Shown: positions 17,963 to 29,811, numbered from the stretch's first letter. The stretch: 64,000 bases of DNA from an uncultured Actinomycetota bacterium (GCA_964517765.1 CAZFEN010000001.1:34345-98344); one strand, 5' to 3'. Notes: generated from the sequence alone by a model not told the origin. Made by a program: numbers and translations.

Positions 17963-18841
17963 TCACAGGACTGATTCTTCTTTTAAAATTTTATCCAGTA
18001 CTAAACCTGCTCCATAGGAAGATCTTATAAATATTCCGCTCTCAACTGCTTTAAAACCAAAACTCATGGCCAATTCTCTTATGCTTTCAAATTCTTCAGG
18101 CTTATAATACTTCTTTACCGGAATATTCGATAGTGAAGGCCTGAGATATTGGCCTATTGTAACTATATCACAGCTTACTCCCTTTAAATCTGCCAGCAAT
18201 TCTCCCACTTCTTCCCTGCTTTCCCCGAGCCCAAGCATAAATCCGGACTTTGTGTAAATATCGGGTTTAAACAGTTTAGAAAATTTTAATATGGCAAGAG
18301 AATTCTCGTAATTTGAGTATTTCCTGGCTAAAGAGAAATTTCTTTTTATTGTCTCTATATTATGAGCCAGTACATCCGGATTTCTCATAAGAACAATCTT
18401 CAAGTTGTCGGTATTTCCTTTAAAATCGGGAATCAGACACTCTATTTTTGAAAAAGGGTTTGATCTCTTTATTTCGCTTATAGTTTTTGCAAAATGATAA
18501 CTTCCGCCATCGGTCAGATCATCTCTGGTCACCGAAGTAATTACGGCATATTTCAATCTCATTTTCTTTACCGCAGATGCTATTCTTGTGGGTTCATATT
18601 CATCAAGGATTTGAGGTTTTCCGGATCTTATCCCGCAAAAACCACAATTACGGGTACAGGTATTCCCCATCAACATGAAAGTCGCGATTTTTTTCCCAAA
18701 ACATTCAAAAATATTTGGGCACCCGGCACTCTGACAGACAGTATTTAAATGCAAATCATAAAGGAGATTTTTGATCTGCTTGATTTTAAAGTTGTTCAGG
18801 TTGACTTTCTTCTTAAGCCAATCCGGCGTGTTACTGGACAA
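17963..18841 (-). CDS. lipA: lipoyl synthase
   Basis: N-terminal auxiliary-cluster cysteines (CQSAGCPNIFEC) plus radical-SAM CTRNCGFC; aligns with E. coli LipA. Confidence 0.9.
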   Translation of the reverse strand: MSSNTPDWLKKKVNLNNFKIKQIKNLLYDLHLNTVCQSAGCPNIFECFGKKIATFMLMGNTCTRNCGFCGIRSGKPQILDEYEPTRIASAVKKMRLKYAVITSVTRDDLTDGGSYHFAKTISEIKRSNPFSKIECLIPDFKGNTDNLKIVLMRNPDVLAHNIETIKRNFSLARKYSNYENSLAILKFSKLFKPDIYTKSGFMLGLGESREEVGELLADLKGVSCDIVTIGQYLRPSLSNIPVKKYYKPEEFESIRELAMSFGFKAVESGIFIRSSYGAGLVLDKILKEESVL

Positions 18842-19697
18842 TTCTACTCACAATTCTTTCGAGATCTCTAATAGAGCCAAATTCTACTACGATTTTTCCC
18901 TTTTTTTTGCTCATTGATATTTTAACAGGAGCATTCAAATGCTCGGATAATTTCTGAGATATTTCGGGAAATTTACTTAACTGTAATACTTTTTTGTCTT
19001 TTTTGCCTTCGACAGTCTCTTTTTTCTTAGTTGCTATTCTTTCTACATCTCTTACGCTGAGATCGTTTTTGGTTATGAGATTTGCAACTTTTATCCTTTC
19101 CTCTTCTCCGTCTATTGCCAGTATCGACCTCGCATGTCCCTCGCTTATCTTTCCTTCGTTTATCAATTTTTGGATTTCGAGGGGGAGCGAGATCAATCTT
19201 AATAAGTTTGTTATTGATACCCTGCTTTTCCCAACTCTTTTTGAAAGTTGGTCATGGGTTATCTTAAATTCATCTATAAGTTGTTTAAACGTATGAGCCT
19301 TTTCCATGGGGCTTAAGTTATCTCTATGAATGTTTTCAATAAGAGCCATTTCAAGGGAAGATATATCATCAATATCTTTAACTATTATAGAAGGAATTGT
19401 ATTAATACCAATTTTTTTAGTGGCTCTGTATCTTCTCTCTCCGGTAACAATTTCATATTTTTCTTCCTCATCCAATCTTCTTACAACTATGGGCTGGATG
19501 ACCCCAAATTCCTTTATTGACTCGGAAAGCTCAGCAAGTGATTCATCGTCAAACCTGCTCCTGGGCTGATTTTTGTTTGGGATAATCTTATCCAATGACA
19601 GTTCAACTATTGTATTTGATTCACCTTCTAAAGATTTGTCTATGCTTGGAATTAAAGCACCAAGTCCCCTGCCTAAACCTCTTCTAGCCATTTTCAA
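18831..19697 (-). CDS. parB: chromosome partitioning protein ParB/Spo0J
   Basis: GLGRGLGALIP N-terminal motif, ParB box, HTH; stop overlaps lipA start by 11 nt. Confidence 0.9.
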   Translation of the reverse strand: MKMARRGLGRGLGALIPSIDKSLEGESNTIVELSLDKIIPNKNQPRSRFDDESLAELSESIKEFGVIQPIVVRRLDEEEKYEIVTGERRYRATKKIGINTIPSIIVKDIDDISSLEMALIENIHRDNLSPMEKAHTFKQLIDEFKITHDQLSKRVGKSRVSITNLLRLISLPLEIQKLINEGKISEGHARSILAIDGEEERIKVANLITKNDLSVRDVERIATKKKETVEGKKDKKVLQLSKFPEISQKLSEHLNAPVKISMSKKKGKIVVEFGSIRDLERIVSRIVQ

Positions 19698-20520
19698 TCA
19701 CTTCCTTTGTAAAATTGTTGTAAGCTTCTGCACCTTTGCAATGAGGATCGTAATCTATTATGGGTTTGCCGTAACTGGGGGCCTCGCTCAGCCTCACGTT
19801 TCTTGGGATAACTGTCTTATATACTTTTTCCGAGAAATAATTTTTGACTTCTTCTATTACCTGTTCTGCAAGTTTTATTCTTGGATCATACATGGTCATT
19901 ATTGCTCCCTTTATTTTCAAGGCATCATTTAGATTTTTTTTAACCAGATTTATTGTATTCAAAAGTTGGCCAAGCCCTTCAAGTGCATAATACTCGCATT
20001 GTATTGGTATAATAACCTCTCTGGCCGCTGTTAAAGCATTAATAGTCAAAAGCCCCAGCGCCGGAGGACAATCGATAAGTATGAAATCGTAGTCTTTTTC
20101 AATCTTGATTATGGCTTCTTTTAATCTAAACTCTCTTTTTAAGCTCGAAACCAGTTCAACTTCTGCTCCGGCAAGCTGTATTGAAGACGGAAGAAGTCTT
20201 AGATTTTTATACGAGGTATCTATAATTATTTCATCCGGCTCACTGTCATGGATCAATATATCATATATCGACTGTTTTACATCCGAGGGATTTACGCCCA
20301 GACCGCTTGTCGAATTGCTTTGCGGATCGAGATCTATAAGTAAAGTTTTGTAGCCATAAGAGCTTAAATATGCAGATACATTTACTGCTGTTGTGCTTTT
20401 ACCAACACCACCTTTTTGATTTGTAAAAGCAATTATTCTGCTCAGCCGTTTTTTATTTACCATTTCGTCCTGTTTTTTATTTTTGATTATCATATCAAAA
20501 AATTTCAATTTATGGATCAC
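19684..20520 (-). CDS. parA: chromosome partitioning ATPase ParA/Soj
   Basis: Deviant Walker A KGGVGKSTTAVNVS. Confidence 0.9.
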   Translation of the reverse strand: MIHKLKFFDMIIKNKKQDEMVNKKRLSRIIAFTNQKGGVGKSTTAVNVSAYLSSYGYKTLLIDLDPQSNSTSGLGVNPSDVKQSIYDILIHDSEPDEIIIDTSYKNLRLLPSSIQLAGAEVELVSSLKREFRLKEAIIKIEKDYDFILIDCPPALGLLTINALTAAREVIIPIQCEYYALEGLGQLLNTINLVKKNLNDALKIKGAIMTMYDPRIKLAEQVIEEVKNYFSEKVYKTVIPRNVRLSEAPSYGKPIIDYDPHCKGAEAYNNFTKEVIENG

Positions 20521-20581: not shown

Positions 20582-21316
20582 TTACTGCAACGGTCCCTTG
20601 ACTATTTTATTGAAAGTTCGTGGGTATATTACCGGAGATTTTAGTACTTTCTTTATTACCAGAAAAGTCCTATATTCATTTAAATAAGGGACCTCTACCT
20701 CTAGCAAATTATCTACCTTTCCCCCCAATTTTGAGATAACTTCCCTGTTGCTATCAAGTTCGGTGAATATTTTTTTACTTTTATAAAATATAATTTTACC
20801 ATTTATTCTACAAAATGGAATTGTTAATTCGCTTAAAATATTTAAACTTGCAACGGCTCTCGACAGAACAATATCGAAAGTTTCTCTATATTGGGCTTCA
20901 TTACCCAGCTCCTCTGCCCTGCCTCTGATAACCCTGACATTTTTTAATCCTAATTCCTCTACGATCATATTTAAGAAATTGATTTTTTTTAATGTTTTAT
21001 CCAGAAGATAAAATATTTTATCCTTTAAAAAAATAGACAAAAGCGCTCCGGGTAGTCCTGCCCCCGTTCCTAAATCCAGTACTTTCCGCGCAGGATCTTC
21101 ATTATTGAATACCATCTTTTCATATTTAAGTATCGAGATAGAATCCAGAATATGCCTTACAAGGATCCCCTTTTTATCCTTAGTACCAATAAGATTGAAT
21201 TTCTGATTATACTCATAAACTAAATTCAGGTATTTTTCCAGGATTCTTACCTGGCTCTGAGAAAAGTCAATACCAAATTCTGCGAGCGATTCTCTTAAAA
21301 TATGGGAAGTATTCAA
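20582..21316 (-). CDS. rsmG: 16S rRNA (guanine527-N7)-methyltransferase RsmG (GidB)
   Basis: SAM motif LDLGTGAGLPG; conserved position downstream of mnmG. Confidence 0.85.
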   Translation of the reverse strand: MNTSHILRESLAEFGIDFSQSQVRILEKYLNLVYEYNQKFNLIGTKDKKGILVRHILDSISILKYEKMVFNNEDPARKVLDLGTGAGLPGALLSIFLKDKIFYLLDKTLKKINFLNMIVEELGLKNVRVIRGRAEELGNEAQYRETFDIVLSRAVASLNILSELTIPFCRINGKIIFYKSKKIFTELDSNREVISKLGGKVDNLLEVEVPYLNEYRTFLVIKKVLKSPVIYPRTFNKIVKGPLQ

Positions 21317-23184
21317 TTCAATACCTTCTTTGATCTACCCTTTAGATTTAACATTATTATTGATATATCCGCTGGTGATACTCCTGCAATCCTTGAAGCC
21401 TGACCAAGAGTATTTGGCTTGATTTTTGTTAATTTCTCCTGCGCTTCGTAAGTCAAACCTATTATTTTAAAATAGTCCAGATCCGGTAAAAGATAATATC
21501 TTTCCAGATTCCCTAATTTTTTAATTTCTGCCAGCTGCCGGTTTATATAACCTTCGTATTTTGTTCTTATTTCTGCCTGCTCAAGCACCCCCTTCTCATA
21601 GCTGCTTTTTTTACCGATAAAATAGTCCACTACATCATGAATGCTAACTTCTGGTCTTTTTAAAAGTTTATAAATATTAAAAGGGGTATCAATGGATCTG
21701 GTTCCGATCTTTTCAAGTATTTTATTATTCTTTTTATCCGGATTCAAAATAATATTTTTTAATTTTGACACCAGTTTATTTGTTTTCTCTTCCTTTCTTC
21801 TTACTTTCTCATACTGGCCATCTGTTATTAGACCAGCGCTGTTACCAAATCCACACAATCGTATATCGGCATTATCGGACCGTAATATCAGCCTGTATTC
21901 CGCCCTGGAAGTATACATCCTGTAAGGTTCTATAAGATCTTTAGTAAGAAGATCATCGATTAAAACTCCTATATAGCTGGTATCTCTGGTCAGTATCATT
22001 TGTGATCTGCCCAGTACCTTGAGTGCCGCATTTATTCCGGCAACAAGACCCTGGGCTGCTGCCTCTTCATACCCTGAAGTGCCATTTATCTGGCCCGCAA
22101 AATATAAATTTTCTATATTTTTCGATTCCAGAGTAAAATTCAGTTGACTTGGAATTATATAATCATACTCTACCGCATAACCGGGCCTTATTATTCTGGC
22201 ATTTTCCAATCCTTCAACAGTATTTACTATTTTCTGCTGTATTTCTGCGGGCATACTTGTAGTAAGCCCCTGAAGATACATTTCACCGCTGTGTGCACCT
22301 TCTGGTTCAATAAAAACAGGGTGCCTTTTTTTCCCGGGGAAATTTATGACTTTTCTATCTATAGAAGGGCAGTGCCTTGGTCCATGGGTATCAACCATCC
22401 CGGATCTTATAGGGGATTTCTCTATATTTTCGGTGATAATTTTATGGGTTTTCTTATTTGTATAAGTAATATAACAATCAATGTTTTCGTATATCTTTTC
22501 TTCATCCCAGAATGAAAAGCTTAAAGGTTCCCTGTCTCCGCATTGAACAATTGTTTTAGAGAAATCCACTGTTCTTTTATCGATCCTCGGAGGAGTAGCC
22601 GTTTGAAATCTGCCTATATTAAAATTAAGGTCAATTAAGTTTTTGGTTAAATTCATTGCGGGATATTCCCCCATCCGTCCGGCTTGATAATCTTTTTCCC
22701 CTATTATGATTCTTCCTCTCAAAAAAGTACCGGCGGTAATTACCACTGCTTTCCCCTTAAAAATTAAACCGCTTTCTGTTTCAACTCCAAATGCCTTATT
22801 ATTTTTAACAAATATCTTATTTATTGTCCCCTGTCTCAAAGTTAAATTCTGAGTGTTTTCAAGGATTCTCTTCATCTCGATTTCGTATTTTTTCTTATCT
22901 ATCTGAGCCCTTAGAGCCTGGACTGCCGGACCCTTGCTTCTGTTCAGGACCTTTATCTGTATTAAAGTATTGTCGGCTGTCTTTGCCATCTGTCCGCCAA
23001 GTGCGTCCAGTTCCCTGACCAGCTGACTCTTTCCTAATCCTCCTATTGATGGATTGCAGGGCATTAAAGCAATTTTATCAACATTAATCGTTAGCAGTAT
23101 AGTCTTTAAGCCTAATCTTGCAGATGCCAGTGCCGCTTCGCAACCCGCATGCCCGGCACCTACGACTATTATGTCATACTTCAT
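21313..23184 (-). CDS. mnmG: tRNA uridine 5-carboxymethylaminomethyl modification enzyme MnmG (GidA), full length
   Basis: 623 aa; FAD motif VVGAGHAGCEAA; conserved MPCNPSIGG and GPRHCPSID cysteine motifs; C-terminal helical domain present. Confidence 0.9.
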   Translation of the reverse strand: MKYDIIVVGAGHAGCEAALASARLGLKTILLTINVDKIALMPCNPSIGGLGKSQLVRELDALGGQMAKTADNTLIQIKVLNRSKGPAVQALRAQIDKKKYEIEMKRILENTQNLTLRQGTINKIFVKNNKAFGVETESGLIFKGKAVVITAGTFLRGRIIIGEKDYQAGRMGEYPAMNLTKNLIDLNFNIGRFQTATPPRIDKRTVDFSKTIVQCGDREPLSFSFWDEEKIYENIDCYITYTNKKTHKIITENIEKSPIRSGMVDTHGPRHCPSIDRKVINFPGKKRHPVFIEPEGAHSGEMYLQGLTTSMPAEIQQKIVNTVEGLENARIIRPGYAVEYDYIIPSQLNFTLESKNIENLYFAGQINGTSGYEEAAAQGLVAGINAALKVLGRSQMILTRDTSYIGVLIDDLLTKDLIEPYRMYTSRAEYRLILRSDNADIRLCGFGNSAGLITDGQYEKVRRKEEKTNKLVSKLKNIILNPDKKNNKILEKIGTRSIDTPFNIYKLLKRPEVSIHDVVDYFIGKKSSYEKGVLEQAEIRTKYEGYINRQLAEIKKLGNLERYYLLPDLDYFKIIGLTYEAQEKLTKIKPNTLGQASRIAGVSPADISIIMLNLKGRSKKVLN

Positions 23185-23217
23185 TTCTTCTACTCGATAT
23201 GTCCATTAAATAATTAT

Positions 23218-23235
23218 ATGTTTCACGTGAAACAT
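23218..23235. promoter_or_regulatory. perfect 18-bp palindrome ATGTTTCACGTGAAACAT, 34 nt upstream of the mnmG start, overlapping a TATAAT -10-like hexamer (mRNA sense)
   Basis: Read directly; the same 16-bp core recurs at 24678-24693. Confidence 0.5.
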
Positions 23236-23237
23236 TG

Positions 23238-24659
23238 TTATCTATTCATTATATTTCGCATGATTTTTTCTGCTCTTTCATCAGAGCCCATACTTAATAA
23301 AATCTTTATCATTTTATTAACATCACTGGAATCATCATTTAAAAAAACCTTATCGTTTATTGTTAATATTACACTGCGCGACCTTTTTGATTCCTTTTCT
23401 ATCAGAATACTGATTAGCTGTCCTATATATCCATCTTCCTTATTTATAACAATACTGGTAAGGTTTTTCGCTTCTCTGGAAGCATTTATCCCTGCAATTA
23501 GTCCCTGTGCTGCTGACTCTTCGTAACCGGTGGTTCCATTCACCTGACCGGCGAAAAAAACTCTATTAAGTGTTTTACTTTCCAGATTACTTTTTAATTG
23601 ATAAGGGAGTAAACAGTAATACTCTATTCCATAACCGGGCCTGGTTATTTCCACGCCCTCAAAATTTTTTATTTTTCTTAACATTTCAACCTGTAACTCT
23701 TCCGATACTGCAGTTTCAAGACCATTTAGATATGCCTCTTTTGTATCTCTCCCCAATGGTTTTATTGAAACTTCTTGGCCCTCGATATCTTCTTTTTTTA
23801 ATAATTTAGCTTCTATTGAAAGGACATCTTCCGATATATCCAGGTAATTACCGCTTCTATTATTTTTAATATTGGTCGAATGCCCCCGTAAATATCTGGA
23901 AAAATCTTTATTTATATAAGTCGTATAATAATAAATTTGCTCTCTATTTTTAAAATTACTTTCATATGAAAATGTCCATTGTTTCCTGCTATATGGCTGC
24001 CTTTTCAGACTATTTAAATCAATTGATTTTTTATCCACTATGGGAGCTGCATAATTCTTTAACTTTCCAAACCTGAAACCAAGGTTTTCTAAACCATTTA
24101 ACAGCCTTTTGGAGCATATTTCGCCCTGTCTCCCTGCTTCAATCATATAATCCCCCCAGAAAATTCTTGCTTTAAGGAAAGTACCGGTGCATATAATGAT
24201 CGATCTGCAGAAGTACGTAATTCCATCACTTGTGTATAAGAGATATCCACTACTGTCTTCTTTTACATTTACCGCGAGTCCCTGCCGTAAATCTAAATTA
24301 CTTTGTTTCTCAAGTACCTCTTTCATTGAAAGAGAATATCTTCTTCTGTCAACTATTGCCTGAAGGGCCGCATTGGTCCTATTTTTCGTATTTTTGATTT
24401 CTTTAAGATGAATATAGTTTTTATCTATATTCCTTGAGATTTCTCCACCCAGTAGATCTATTTCTCTTAACAGTTGACTCTTTCCGATACCTCCTACGGT
24501 ACTGCCATATGGCATAATAGCTATACTATCCATATTTATTGATACAAGTAGAGTTTTAGAACCATTCCTTGCAGAACTCAGAGCTGCCTCACAACCCGCA
24601 TGTCCGGCACCTATTACTACCACATCATATATATTTTCTTTTATTGTTTTTATTCCCAT
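23238..24659 (-). CDS. truncated MnmG/GidA-like paralog lacking both conserved cysteines and the C-terminal MnmE-interaction domain
   Basis: 473 aa; FAD motif VIGAGHAGCEAA retained. MPCNPSIGG replaced by MPYGSTVGG, no GPRxCPS motif, ends about 100 aa after AGQVNGTTGYEESAAQGLIAG. Confidence 0.8.
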   Translation of the reverse strand: MGIKTIKENIYDVVVIGAGHAGCEAALSSARNGSKTLLVSINMDSIAIMPYGSTVGGIGKSQLLREIDLLGGEISRNIDKNYIHLKEIKNTKNRTNAALQAIVDRRRYSLSMKEVLEKQSNLDLRQGLAVNVKEDSSGYLLYTSDGITYFCRSIIICTGTFLKARIFWGDYMIEAGRQGEICSKRLLNGLENLGFRFGKLKNYAAPIVDKKSIDLNSLKRQPYSRKQWTFSYESNFKNREQIYYYTTYINKDFSRYLRGHSTNIKNNRSGNYLDISEDVLSIEAKLLKKEDIEGQEVSIKPLGRDTKEAYLNGLETAVSEELQVEMLRKIKNFEGVEITRPGYGIEYYCLLPYQLKSNLESKTLNRVFFAGQVNGTTGYEESAAQGLIAGINASREAKNLTSIVINKEDGYIGQLISILIEKESKRSRSVILTINDKVFLNDDSSDVNKMIKILLSMGSDERAEKIMRNIMNR

Positions 24660-24677
24660 ATCTGAATTTTATAATTT

Positions 24678-24693
24678 TGTTTCACGTGAAACA
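24678..24693. promoter_or_regulatory. second copy of the palindrome core TGTTTCACGTGAAACA, upstream of the mnmG-like paralog
   Basis: Read directly; 34 nt upstream of the paralog start, followed by a TATAAA hexamer in mRNA sense. Confidence 0.5.
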
Positions 24694-24732
24694 TTTTCGC
24701 CAAATATCCTTATTATGTTGTTTTTTGACACT

Positions 24733-26121
24733 TTATTTACCTATGCAGAATTGACTGAATATTTCTTCCAGAATATCCTCTCTCACAGTTTCTCCTATTA
24801 TCTCTCCCAGTAGTTCAAATGCGGTCTTTAAATCATAAGAAGGAAACTCTTCGGACATCTTATCATTTACTGCTTCCTCTGCTCTATTCAAAGATTTTTT
24901 TACCTCTTCCAATATCTTTTTATGTCTGCTATTAATAATGATTTTCTCCTCCAGATCGATATCCCCACCACCCAATATAATAGATTTTATTTTATTTTCT
25001 AATTCCTTAATTCCCTTTCCTTTTAATGCAGAAATTTTTATAACATATTTCTCATCAAAATACTTCTTAATCTTTAATACTTCCAACTTTTGTTTTAAAT
25101 CTATTTTATTAATACAACAAATAATACTTTTCCCTTTTATTTTATTTATTATTTGTAAATCCATTTGTTCTAACTTCCTGTTTCCGTCCAAGACCAGTAA
25201 AATCAATTCAGCTTCGTTTATATGTTTTAAACTTCTATCTACTCCTATTTTTTCTATGGCGCTTCTTGTTTTTCTTATCCCTGCTGTATCGACCAGAATA
25301 AGCGGTATCCCTTCGACATACAAGATTTCTTCTACTGCATCTCTCGTCGTTCCGGGAATTGGAGTCACTATTGCCTTTTCTTTCCTGGATAGCAAATTTA
25401 ACAAACTGGATTTCCCCACATTTGGTTTTCCGATAATTGCTATTTTGACACCATTTTTTATAATTTCCCCCTTTTTCTCGTTTATTATCAATTCTTCAAG
25501 TTCTGCCCTTATTTTTTTTACTTCTCTGGCAATTTCCCGATATGGCGTTACTTCCAGGTCTTCTTCAATAAAGTCTACCGGGGCTTCCAGCTGTACACGT
25601 ATATCCAGAAGATTTCTTCTCAGTCTCTTTATCTCTTCTTTTATATTGCCCCGTAAATTCTTAGCAGCAAGCCTCAGGCTCTGTTCCGTTCGGGATCTTA
25701 CCAGATCTATAACTGCTTCTGCCTGTGATAGATCTATTCTTCCATTCAGAAAAGCTCTTTTTGTAAATTCTCCCGGATCCGCTATTCTTGCACCATTTTC
25801 AATACATAATTCCATTGTTTTAGTAGTAGCAATTATTCCCCCGTGACAGTTTATCTCTACAACATCTTCCCGTGTATATGAACCAGGTTTTTTCATTACT
25901 GTAATAATTACTTCATCAATGAAATGGCCACTATTATCAATAATATGTCCGTAAAGCATACTATACGTACCAATATCTTTTATCTTCTTTTTATTTTTTG
26001 ATTTAAATATCTTATCAGCTATAGAAATCGACCTATCACCGCTTAATTTGACTATACCAATCGCTGCTTCACCGGCTCTGGTTCCCACTGCTACTATTGT
26101 ATCGTTTATTTCCGCCTTCAT
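24733..26121 (-). CDS. mnmE: tRNA modification GTPase MnmE (TrmE)
   Basis: 462 aa; G1 GKPNVGKSSLLN, G-domain motifs, C-terminal CIGK. Confidence 0.9.
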   Translation of the reverse strand: MKAEINDTIVAVGTRAGEAAIGIVKLSGDRSISIADKIFKSKNKKKIKDIGTYSMLYGHIIDNSGHFIDEVIITVMKKPGSYTREDVVEINCHGGIIATTKTMELCIENGARIADPGEFTKRAFLNGRIDLSQAEAVIDLVRSRTEQSLRLAAKNLRGNIKEEIKRLRRNLLDIRVQLEAPVDFIEEDLEVTPYREIAREVKKIRAELEELIINEKKGEIIKNGVKIAIIGKPNVGKSSLLNLLSRKEKAIVTPIPGTTRDAVEEILYVEGIPLILVDTAGIRKTRSAIEKIGVDRSLKHINEAELILLVLDGNRKLEQMDLQIINKIKGKSIICCINKIDLKQKLEVLKIKKYFDEKYVIKISALKGKGIKELENKIKSIILGGGDIDLEEKIIINSRHKKILEEVKKSLNRAEEAVNDKMSEEFPSYDLKTAFELLGEIIGETVREDILEEIFSQFCIGK

Positions 26122-26260: not shown

Positions 26261-26845
26261 TTATTTGCTGCTTTTTATTGGATAAATTATTATTCTTCTG
26301 TTAGGTTCGTCGTATCTGCTTCTTGTGGTTACATTGCTAAATCTTGCAAGCAGGTTATGTATTATTTTTCTCTCGTAAGAATCCATTGGTTTTAATGCTA
26401 TTTTTCTTCCTTCGTTAATTGCTTTTTTTGCCATAAATATCGCAGTTTTTTTTATCCCATTTATTCTTTTTTTCCTATAGTCTTTTATATCTATCATTAT
26501 ATTTCTATCTACTAATTTTTTCCTCTTCCCAATCAAGTTTATGATATATTCAAGCGCCTGCATATTCTTTCCGTCCCGGCCTATAGCGATTCCCAGATCC
26601 TCTCCCTGGACCGACAGCCTTAATTCTTCCGAATCTGTTTTAATCTTTACATCTTCTCCGGGACATATAAGTTTTAATATTTTTTTTAAAATCCCTTTTA
26701 TTTTTTCAAGTCCATCCTTTTCTATAACTTTATCTTCTGCCATGTTTTTAGGGGTATTTTCTATTAACCTGTTTCTTTTTTGTTCTTCTTCCAGTGATTC
26801 TACAAATGAATCTATAGCATCTTTTATACTTTTATCTTCGGTCAT
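26261..26845 (-). CDS. jag: Jag/KhpB RNA-binding protein (KH + R3H domains)
   Basis: 194 aa; C-terminal R3H (YERKIIHNLLARFSNVTTRSRYDEPNRRIIIYP); conserved position after yidC. Confidence 0.8.
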   Translation of the reverse strand: MTEDKSIKDAIDSFVESLEEEQKRNRLIENTPKNMAEDKVIEKDGLEKIKGILKKILKLICPGEDVKIKTDSEELRLSVQGEDLGIAIGRDGKNMQALEYIINLIGKRKKLVDRNIMIDIKDYRKKRINGIKKTAIFMAKKAINEGRKIALKPMDSYERKIIHNLLARFSNVTTRSRYDEPNRRIIIYPIKSSK

Positions 26846-26871: not shown

Positions 26872-27729
26872 TTATCTTTTCTTTTTTCTTTTCTTTTTTA
26901 ATTTTCTTCTTATTGACTTCTTCTCTTCTTCGCTTAATTCGAGACTTCCTGTAAGACTCTCCTTTCCCTGGCTTAATTCTTCTTTTACTTTTTCTTTTTT
27001 AACAAGTTTATTTACAAGCCACTGCTGGCCAATGGACCATACATTTGTTGTTACCCAATATATCAGTATGCCTGATGGAAACTGCCAGGATATAAACCCA
27101 AATACTAAGGGCATTATGTACATGATCTTTGACTGCCTGGCGTCTGTTGTCGTCATCTTCATTGACAGAAACATTGTTGCAACCATCAGAATAACCAGGA
27201 TATAATAAGGATCCCTCGAGTTTAGATTCATCCATAAGAAATTATAATTGGGATTTGCTACTCCAGTCAGTGTAAAGTTCGCAGTAGATTGAAATCCTGT
27301 CAGTCCTATATTTATACTGTTGGCAACACCATCTAAACTAAAACTTCCCAAAACATTTGTTACAATTTCAGAGGGGTTTCGGAGTGCCTGGAACAATGCA
27401 AAAAATACAGGCATCTGAAAGAGTAGAGGCAAGCATCCTGCCAGCGGATTTACATTATTTTTCTTATAAAATTCCATTGTCTCCTGCTGCAGCTTTTGCT
27501 TGTCATCTTTATATTTTTTTTGTAGTTCTTTAAGTTCCGGCTGTATTTTCTGCATTTTTGCCATTGATCTGGTCTGGCTTATTGTAAGAGGGACAAGGAC
27601 TATCCTTACTATTATAGTCAGCAGTATTATAACTATGCCGTAATTCGTAACTACATGATTATATAAAAAAATAACTATGTACTCTAATCCATGCTGGATT
27701 GGGCTTAATATTTGTAATAACCAACTCAA
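26872..27729 (-). CDS. yidC: membrane protein insertase YidC (short form)
   Basis: 285 aa; YidC/Oxa1 core with lysine-rich C-terminal tail; conserved synteny. Confidence 0.85.
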   Translation of the reverse strand: MSWLLQILSPIQHGLEYIVIFLYNHVVTNYGIVIILLTIIVRIVLVPLTISQTRSMAKMQKIQPELKELQKKYKDDKQKLQQETMEFYKKNNVNPLAGCLPLLFQMPVFFALFQALRNPSEIVTNVLGSFSLDGVANSINIGLTGFQSTANFTLTGVANPNYNFLWMNLNSRDPYYILVILMVATMFLSMKMTTTDARQSKIMYIMPLVFGFISWQFPSGILIYWVTTNVWSIGQQWLVNKLVKKEKVKEELSQGKESLTGSLELSEEEKKSIRRKLKKKRKKKR

Positions 27730-27744
27730 TTTATAACCTTTCTT

Positions 27745-27954
27745 TTATTTCACAGGATCATATCCGCCTCTATTAAAGGGATTGCATCTTAAAATTCTAT
27801 ACATTGATTTAATACTACCTTTTAATACACCGTATCTACTAATAGCCCCGATTGCATATTCCGAACAGGTAGGGTAGAACCTGCAGCTTTTTGGTAATAC
27901 GGGGGAGATATATTTTTTATAACACTTAATTAAAAATATCAGTATTTTCTTCAC
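27745..27954 (-). CDS. yidD: membrane protein insertion efficiency factor YidD
   Basis: 69 aa; [20 protein letters not shown] signature. Confidence 0.85.
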
Positions 27955-28862: not shown

Positions 28863-28956
28863 CCTTAAGCTTCTGAAAAGAAAATGAAAAGCAATATCGT
28901 TGATTGATATGTTTTCTGTTAAATAAAACAATTCGCATTTAAAGTTGACATTAATA

Positions 28957-29811
28957 ATGCCTGACGAAAATACTAAACCAAATAATGCTGACGATTCCAA
29001 CAAAATCTATGGAAACATTGAAAAAATACCGGTCAGAATCGCAGTCTATGATAATATGCGGAGCATTCCAAGGATAGTGAATCTCAGCTATGATAATATT
29101 GCGGACTTCATTAATGAAACCACCCAAAAAACCTATAGTCTATCCCATGAGATTGGCGGGAGAATTCCTTATACAATAATAAAAGAGATAATAGAGAATC
29201 TTATACACGCAGATTTCAAAGAAGTTGTGATTACTGTGTTGGAAAGGGGAGACCATATAATCATAACGGACCAGGGACCGGGAATCGAAGACAAAGAAAA
29301 AGCTTTCCTACCGGGATATACTTCCGCTACGAGTAAAATGAAAGAATACATCAGGGGAGTGGGTTCGGGTTTTCCGATAGTAAAAGAAACTATAACTTTT
29401 TCCGGAGGATCTATCGATGTAAAAGACAATATAAAAAGGGGGACGGTAATATCTTTAAAACTTGGACAGCCGGAAAAGAGTGATAGCGTAAAGGATACGG
29501 AAATCAAGACAACCGGTGAGACGATACCTGTTATTCCCGACGAGGATAAAAAAACTCCGGCAGATGGCATAGACAAATTTGATCATAAAGTATTATCCGA
29601 CAGACAAAAGAAGATCCTTTTTGTGATCCTGGAACTGGAAGAAGCCGGGCCTTCTACAATAGCCAGTGAGCTGGGTTTTAGTCTCTCTACTTCATACCGG
29701 GAATTAATCTACCTGGAAAAGAACAAAATGCTTGCCTCCGGCAGCAACGGCAAGAGAAAATTATCTAAAAAAGGCTTAAAATACCTTGAATATTATTCAA
29801 ATACTATTTAA
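28957..29811 (+). CDS. GHKL/histidine-kinase-like ATPase domain fused to a C-terminal winged-helix DNA-binding domain; function unknown
   Basis: N-box EIIENLIHA, G1 DQGPGI, G2 GVGSGF; C-terminal KILFVILELEEAGPSTIASELGFSLSTSYRELIYLEKNKML. No SD; start at ATG 28957 (TTG 28945 and ATG 29056 are alternatives). Confidence 0.6.
   Translation: MPDENTKPNNADDSNKIYGNIEKIPVRIAVYDNMRSIPRIVNLSYDNIADFINETTQKTYSLSHEIGGRIPYTIIKEIIENLIHADFKEVVITVLERGDHIIITDQGPGIEDKEKAFLPGYTSATSKMKEYIRGVGSGFPIVKETITFSGGSIDVKDNIKRGTVISLKLGQPEKSDSVKDTEIKTTGETIPVIPDEDKKTPADGIDKFDHKVLSDRQKKILFVILELEEAGPSTIASELGFSLSTSYRELIYLEKNKMLASGSNGKRKLSKKGLKYLEYYSNTI

Follow-up and report, generated by a model that had tools for sequence, protein, structure and literature searches.

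Two predicted parS partition sites on either side of a degenerate mnmG paralog in the origin region of an uncultured Actinomycetota bacterium

INTRODUCTION

Chromosomal ParB/Spo0J proteins bind parS, a short palindrome whose optimal sequence has been given as 5'-TGTTTCACGTGAAACA (PMC4333373); the consensus or optimal sequence is quoted in PMC4333373, PMC2346475 and PMC7022226. Two parS sites with exactly this sequence are listed for Hyphomonas, and those of Caulobacter, Burkholderia and others show minor degeneracy (PMC7022226). The closest described case to the locus studied here is that of the mycobacteria, which are also Actinomycetota: Mycobacterium tuberculosis, Mycobacterium bovis and Mycobacterium smegmatis carry the same perfect 16-mer twice, 1-2 kb upstream of parB (PMC2346475). 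Here we describe two copies of this palindrome in a stretch of 64,000 nucleotides from an uncultured Actinomycetota bacterium (GCA_964517765.1 CAZFEN010000001.1:34345-98344). The whole stretch is called the window, and positions are counted from its first letter. The two copies lie on either side of a truncated paralog of mnmG (gidA).

The first-pass annotation of the window had read the palindromes as operators of a dedicated dimeric regulator of both GidA-family genes or, alternatively, as a conserved hairpin in the 5' untranslated region (5'-UTR). We conclude with high confidence that they are chromosomal parS sites, the centromere-like ParB loading sites of a ParABS system, and predict that ParB binds them. 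The palindrome is an already known textbook element and does not represent a novel site for a regulator of the mnmG genes.

RESULTS

Sequence and position of the palindromes

The sequence ATGTTTCACGTGAAACAT at 23218-23235 is a perfect 18-bp palindrome, made up of a 16-bp core plus flanking A/T. Both its sequence and its coordinates were correct in the first-pass annotation, and the second copy of the core reported there was borne out. The core occurs exactly twice in the window, at positions that we call sites A and B (Table 1), and the two copies are 1459 bp apart. A search of the window with ≤3 mismatches returned the same two sites only, whereas dinucleotide-preserving shuffles gave 0.21 on average. 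Under a first-order Markov model of the window, 7e-6 exact copies of the 16-mer are expected; two were observed, so the repeat is real and chance does not account for it. Both sites are identical, letter for letter, to optimal parS and conform to the 16-bp consensus tGTTNCACGTGAAACa.

Both sites are intergenic, site A in the gap between mnmE and the paralog and site B in the gap between the paralog and mnmG. The neighbouring genes are all on the minus strand, in agreement with the co-directional context described earlier. Two further details of that description hold for one site each. The distance of about 34 nt to the start codon, which had been given as equal for both genes, applies to mnmG but not to the paralog, whose ATG at 24659 is 18 nt from the core. 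Similarly, a TATAAT hexamer abuts the core at site B, whereas at site A the TATAAA hexamer follows 4 nt later instead of immediately.

The predicted ParB protein

The parB gene of the window, at a distance of 3.5 kb from site B, encodes a product of 288 aa in which the domains ParB_N, HTH_ParB and ParB_C (PF02195, PF17762, PF23552) were all matched. The true start is likely the ATG at 19691, giving a product that begins with MARRGLGRGL. The N-terminal domain carries the sequence GERRYRA, which corresponds to the cytidine triphosphate (CTP) motif GERRxRA. The protein scored 190.9 bits with the ParB/Spo0J model TIGR00180 (cut-off 58). Its highest raw NCBIfam score was obtained with the Noc model, yet this score is below the cut-off of that model (224 vs 315 bits). 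Among proteins of solved structure, its closest relatives are chromosomal ParB/Spo0J, with parS co-crystals (4umk, 6t1f) among the entries.

Four positions separate specificity for parS from specificity for the Noc-binding site (NBS), with R173/T179/A184/G201 in Caulobacter ParB and Q/K/K/R in Noc (PMC7383237, Jalal et al.). The corresponding positions in the window ParB were assigned from the motif register and from an alignment to ParB of Bacillus subtilis, Helicobacter pylori and Myxococcus xanthus, in which the recognition stretch aligned without gaps. The window ParB reads ...GKSRVSITNLLRLISLP...SEGHAR... (register GKSR-VSIT-N-L-LRLI-S-...-SE-G-HAR), which places R, L, S and G at positions 173, 179, 184 and 201 in Caulobacter numbering. 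No lysine is present at 179 or 184, and the conserved residues N178 and R204 are in register. The recognition residues of the window ParB are of the parS type and not of the Noc/NBS type.

Conservation in related loci and distribution in other bacteria

A scan of one genome per species with the paralog as query gave five loci (L001-L005). A metagenome scan added L006, L007 and 78 generic mnmG loci from diverse bacteria, bringing the total to 85. L001 and L002 are from metagenome-assembled genomes (MAGs) of Actinomycetota and have 82% identity to the paralog, and L005 is from Candidatus Humimicrobiaceae (class Humimicrobiia, Actinomycetota). Identity to the paralog is 51% in L003, 52% in L006 and 47% in L007, the last with a GC content of 0.24. 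L004 is a Desulfuromonas MAG with a single mnmG. The related two-gene loci belong to a Humimicrobiia-like group of Actinomycetota.

All seven loci with two tandem GidA-family genes have parS at both orthologous positions, and 13 of the 14 sites are exact. Site B is exact in L001, L002, L003, L005, L006 and L007. Site A is exact in the same relatives apart from L003, in which it reads TGTTCCACGTGAAACA, a sequence that is itself a natural parS inside spo0J of B. subtilis (PMC4333373). The protein encoded between the sites has diverged to 46-83% identity across these loci and the DNA that follows each site downstream is different, so the sites were kept while their surroundings diverged, as is characteristic of parS.

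Beyond these relatives, the 85 mnmG-centred loci (845 kb, GC 0.24-0.71) contain 41 exact copies of the 16-mer, in loci of GC 0.24-0.56. Most copies are close to parB or directly upstream of parA. The motif is not restricted to one lineage. A single mnmE / parS / mnmG arrangement occurs in L004, L015, L036, L053 and L062. In some unrelated metagenomic loci, L043 (9556-9687, 12142-12196) and L056 (7882-9940), the few kb downstream of mnmG contain clusters of 4-5 sites that are parS or resemble parS, which shows that parS copy number varies around the same gene cluster.

This distribution bears on the dedicated regulator mentioned above, a dimeric transcription factor distinct from ParB that would co-regulate both GidA-family genes from these operators. 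Perfect intergenic palindromes in front of two paralogous genes are what such a factor would use, and two parts of the proposal stand: the site is not due to chance, and the expected binder is a dimeric helix-turn-helix protein. The binder would be ParB, however, and not a regulator of the GidA family. The palindrome matches parS exactly, the cluster itself encodes a ParB of the parS type, and parB is the only gene of transcription-factor type between yidC and lipA. The motif is also not confined to a lineage-specific regulon: the same 16-mer is found near parA/parB and far from mnmG starts in many unrelated bacteria, and its spacing to the supposed target genes is not fixed. We consider a dedicated factor extremely improbable. 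Motifs of other regulators were also compared with the palindrome; Rex (TGTGAA-N4-TTCACA), CRP/FNR (TGTGA-N6-TCACA), CIRCE and NBS were rejected on account of a different half-site orientation or sequence.

Between site A and the stop codon of mnmE, at about 24694-24731 (minus strand), a separate element of approximately 36 nt was noticed. It has the form (U/C)G(U/C/A)CAA-aaaacaa...AAGGA...-UUGGCG. The window, L001, L002 and L005 have near-identical versions of it, and it can still be recognised in L003, L006 and L007; its conservation exceeds that of the adjoining coding DNA. In L007, 19 extra nt are present between the element and parS, and the element is therefore independent of parS. As an RNA stem it would form 6-7 bp in the sense RNA with -3 kcal/mol, and U/C changes occur only opposite G, that is, on one side. 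When the stem was examined in the window and its relatives, no compensatory pairs, Rfam match or U-tract were found.

Gene neighbourhood and proximity to the origin

In mRNA sense the gene order is yidD-yidC-jag-mnmE-(parS A)-gidA paralog-(parS B)-mnmG-rsmG-parA-parB-lipA (Table 1). Sites A and B are at distances of 5.1 and 6.6 kb, respectively, from the start of dnaA, and the cumulative GC skew reaches its minimum at about 30-32 kb of the window. With the yidD-yidC-jag/dnaA synteny present, both sites have the origin-proximal location of parS.

Table 1. Coordinates of the predicted parS sites, the surrounding genes and the first GidA-family genes of related loci
Feature	Coordinates	Strand	Remarks
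parS site A (predicted)	24678..24693	.	exact TGTTTCACGTGAAACA; mnmE stop 39 nt upstream, GidA-paralog ATG 18 nt downstream (mRNA sense)
parS site B (predicted)	23219..23234	.	exact TGTTTCACGTGAAACA; 3 nt after paralog stop, 34 nt before mnmG ATG
yidD	27745-27954	-	cluster gene
yidC	26872-27729	-	cluster gene
jag	26261-26845	-	cluster gene
mnmE	24733..26121	-	TIGR00450, 408.9 bits; upstream of site A
truncated GidA-family paralog, 473 aa	23238..24659	-	GIDA domain only; between the two parS sites, not itself a centromere
mnmG (gidA), full length, 623 aa	21313..23184	-	TIGR00136, 826 bits; GIDA and both C-terminal domains; downstream of site B
rsmG (gidB)	20582..21316	-	TIGR00138, 162.6 bits; gene of the conserved origin-proximal cluster
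parA/soj, partition ATPase	19684..20520	-	AAA_31 1.3e-68, CbiA/ParA families; start codon uncertain
parB	18831..19697	-	TIGR00180; predicted reader of both sites
lipA	17963-18841	-	end of the listed cluster
dnaA	29824..31185	+	TIGR00362, 544.7 bits; replication-origin marker
truncated paralog in relatives	L001 10001-11422; L002 10001-11422; L005 10001-11323; L006 5974-7266		
full-length first copy in relatives	L003 9974-11791; L007 4772-6631		

Two other features of the window were noted. An open reading frame of 288 aa at 28945-29811 (plus strand) lies directly upstream of dnaA, in the usual rpmH-dnaA intergenic/oriC region. It gave weak matches to GHKL (histidine-kinase/MutL-type ATPase) and a weak C-terminal helix-turn-helix-like match, with E values between about 1e-5 and 1e-3 that fall far short of the family cut-offs. 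In the segment 4001-8000 the G+C content is markedly lower, at 0.27 compared to about 0.36 elsewhere in the window, and the GC skew is strongly negative; the segment may be of foreign origin or atypical in some other way.

The GidA-family paralog and the origin of two sites

The product of the paralog, which is 38% identical to that of mnmG, lacks the C-terminal domains, a helical part of roughly 200 aa. It keeps the GxGxxG motif for flavin adenine dinucleotide and the GQ(I/V)NGT(T/S)GYEE motif. Both conserved MnmG cysteines are missing; in Escherichia coli these residues, C47 and C277, are both required for formation of 5-carboxymethylaminomethyluridine (cmnm5U; PMC10723064). Judged by its sequence, this MnmG paralog is degenerate, although the gene has been maintained. 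In the window, L001, L002, L005 and L006 the first GidA-family gene is shortened to 430-473 aa with loss of both cysteines, and in L003 (605 aa) and L007 (619 aa) it is full length with both cysteines. Since these deeper relatives hold a full-length, cysteine-retaining first copy, the comparison suggests a stepwise reduction of the paralog after an old duplication.

The two parS sites bracket truncated and full-length first copies alike. If a parS-mnmG unit was duplicated in tandem long ago, or inserted, one parS would have come to lie before each GidA-family gene, and selection via ParB would then have kept both sites perfect. This is the simplest account because the relatives with two full-length copies share the bracket and because single-copy mnmE / parS / mnmG genomes exist. 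Identity between the full-length first copies and the mnmG of their own lineage is 47-51%, about as high as that to an mnmG from another phylum. In an alignment of the flanks of sites A and B, similarity beyond the 16-18-bp palindrome amounts to AT-richness only. The duplication must therefore be ancient, given also the 38% identity of the paralog, and a recent duplication or repeat element was excluded as the source of the two sites by the ancient divergence and the unlike flanks.

The same data bear on the idea that the palindromes are a dispersed repeat of the repetitive extragenic palindromic (REP) or miniature inverted-repeat transposable element (MITE) type, or a functionless leftover of a recent duplication. 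Two identical copies at a distance of 1459 bp beside paralogous genes could give this impression. However, the identity stops at 16-18 bp and only two copies occur in 64 kb. With paralogs that are 38% identical, a duplication can only be ancient, and neutral copies would have diverged over such a time. The sites are also conserved across deeply diverged relatives and across phyla. A repeat or leftover is hardly credible on these grounds.

Promoter-like sequences and RNA structure around the sites

If the parS sites double as operators, ParB could repress or roadblock both GidA-family genes in addition to its role at the centromere, and expression of the paralog and mnmG would be coupled to ParB occupancy. 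Some features around the sites are consistent with this. Site B fills the 17-nt spacer of a promoter match on the coding strand with -35 ATAACA and -10 TATAAT (23241..23213, 10/12). At site A of the window, L001, L002 and L005, a TA(A/T)(A/T)AT hexamer (TAAAAT/TAATAT) is located 6 nt before the ATG of the paralog and no Shine-Dalgarno sequence is present; this geometry resembles that of a leaderless promoter in which parS would occupy about -34 to -19. There are precedents in other bacteria as well. In M. bovis BCG a parS overlaps the -10 element of the mapped gidB promoter and the authors proposed regulation by ParB (PMC2346475), the ParB of Pseudomonas aeruginosa represses PA0011 and PA0013 via the intergenic sites parS3/parS4, and that of Streptococcus pneumoniae dampens comCDE (PMC7022226).

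Other observations speak against such a role. Sigma-70-like promoter matches in the AT-rich region 22900-25000 numbered 7, compared to 8.6 in shuffles, and the match enclosing site B therefore has no evidential weight. The gap between parS and the start codon varies among the loci, from 9 to 518 nt for site A (9, 16, 16, 18, 18, 26, 28 and 518 nt) and from 19 to 69 nt for site B, which in L003 and L007 is inside coding sequence. An operator would be expected to keep a fixed position across orthologues. L006 has Shine-Dalgarno-like sequences and no -10 element beside either site, and L001 has no TATAAT at site B, so that the operator-in-promoter geometry claimed in the first-pass annotation is not kept in the relatives. 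Furthermore, loss of Spo0J in B. subtilis leaves the expression of parS-adjacent genes unchanged (PMC7022226), and the GidA-family genes may be co-transcribed from upstream. In view of this, an additional operator function of the parS sites is possible but unlikely. The more specific proposal, that the bracket goes beyond a duplication relic and ParB at the two sites silences or gates transcription of both the cysteine-less truncated MnmG paralog and mnmG in the Humimicrobiia-like lineage, we regard as improbable; if true, ParB gating would connect a module for tRNA modification with the state of the origin segregation complex.

A role at the RNA level, as a conserved 5'-UTR or intercistronic hairpin or as an intrinsic terminator or attenuator, is very improbable. 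Any palindrome can fold, and site B with its flanks gave -7.7 kcal/mol (z = -2.3). The core hairpin has only 6-7 pairs, two of them G-C, and site A reached -4.7 kcal/mol (z = -0.66). No U-tract is present and a terminator scan of 22900-25000 was empty at both sites. An Rfam search at E≤1 over 22800-25100 gave no match to the sites and two noise matches to eukaryotic families. The element is invariant, without covariation, and its sole variant, the T-to-C change in L003, would disrupt a pair and has no compensating change. Location of site B within coding sequence in two relatives also disagrees with a structured leader. The sites have the properties of neither an intrinsic terminator nor a structured RNA, and the hairpin offered earlier as an alternative found no support. 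Taken together, the variable distance to the start codon, the unconserved -10-like hexamers and the weak hairpin argue against a fixed operator or 5'-UTR element.

DISCUSSION

The identification of the palindromes as chromosomal parS sites rests on their sequence identity to parS, the nearby ParB and ParA of cognate type, the proximity to the origin and the evolutionary conservation. In every in silico property that we tested, the sites agree with the chromosomal parS family. Three caveats apply to this identification. No enrichment of DnaA boxes was found in the window with the E. coli-type box TTATCCACA at ≤1 mismatch (24 found, 20.9 expected); oriC is thus not pinpointed by DnaA boxes, and origin proximity rests on the dnaA/dnaN synteny and the GC skew. 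The co-occurrence of sites (≤2 mismatches) with a parB homologue in the 85 loci (23 with both, 9 with a site only, 11 with parB only, 42 with neither; Fisher p=4e-6) is inflated by locus length, longer loci being likelier to hold both, and serves as supporting evidence only. Finally, the site inventory covers 64 kb of the genome of an uncultured lineage.

The mechanism that we propose for the sites is drawn from studied systems (reviews PMC7333895, PMC7022226). By analogy, a ParB dimer would nucleate on each 16-bp palindrome via its helix-turn-helix domains, bind CTP, close to a clamp and slide or spread onto the flanking DNA. The spread ParB would build an origin-proximal nucleoprotein or partition complex, and movement of this complex by ParA would segregate the sister origins. 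Such a complex usually also recruits or loads SMC, and the same may apply here. We infer ParB binding, spreading and segregation at the window sites from these parallels.

For annotation, the sites mark the chromosomal centromere, and hence the region of the origin, in an AT-rich lineage of uncultured Actinomycetota, and their identification as parS removes the false lead of a new regulator of mnmG. Sites of this kind are rarely annotated; once recognised, they are of use in orienting MAG contigs and in predicting loading points of ParB and SMC.

Among the known systems, Spo0J and parS of B. subtilis share with the window the identical optimal 16 bp, the origin-proximal location, the gidA-gidB-parA-parB neighbourhood and a three-domain ParB with a CTP motif. 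B. subtilis differs in having 8-10 mostly degenerate sites across the origin region, one of them inside spo0J, whereas the window has two perfect sites, with predicted ParB binding, 1.46 kb apart around a GidA-family paralog. The Noc/NBS system (ATTTCCCGGGAAAT) is similar in that Noc, a paralog of ParB, has a 16-bp palindrome as its binding site, but the DNA in the window is parS and not NBS, and its ParB has the specificity residues R/L/S/G in place of the Q/K/K/R of Noc.

For a possible secondary regulatory role the closest model is P. aeruginosa, where parS3 and parS4 are also intergenic and directly upstream of genes, and where ParB binding lowers expression (PMC7022226). There the repression was shown experimentally, whereas in the window it is a positional possibility with a geometry that is unconserved among relatives.

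The mycobacterial pair remains nearest overall. In M. tuberculosis, in M. bovis BCG and in M. smegmatis, two perfect copies are present in the jag-gidB-parA-parB region, one of which overlaps a promoter element with suggested ParB-mediated regulation (PMC2346475). Their sites are upstream of gidB and inside parA, in contrast to the window, in which they are upstream of mnmG and of the paralog. Mycobacteria are not known to have mnmE-mnmG genes at this place. What is specific to the window is the placement of parS on both sides of a GidA-family paralog, an arrangement that was kept across the Humimicrobiia-like group and that we regard as a small evolutionary curiosity of modest importance.

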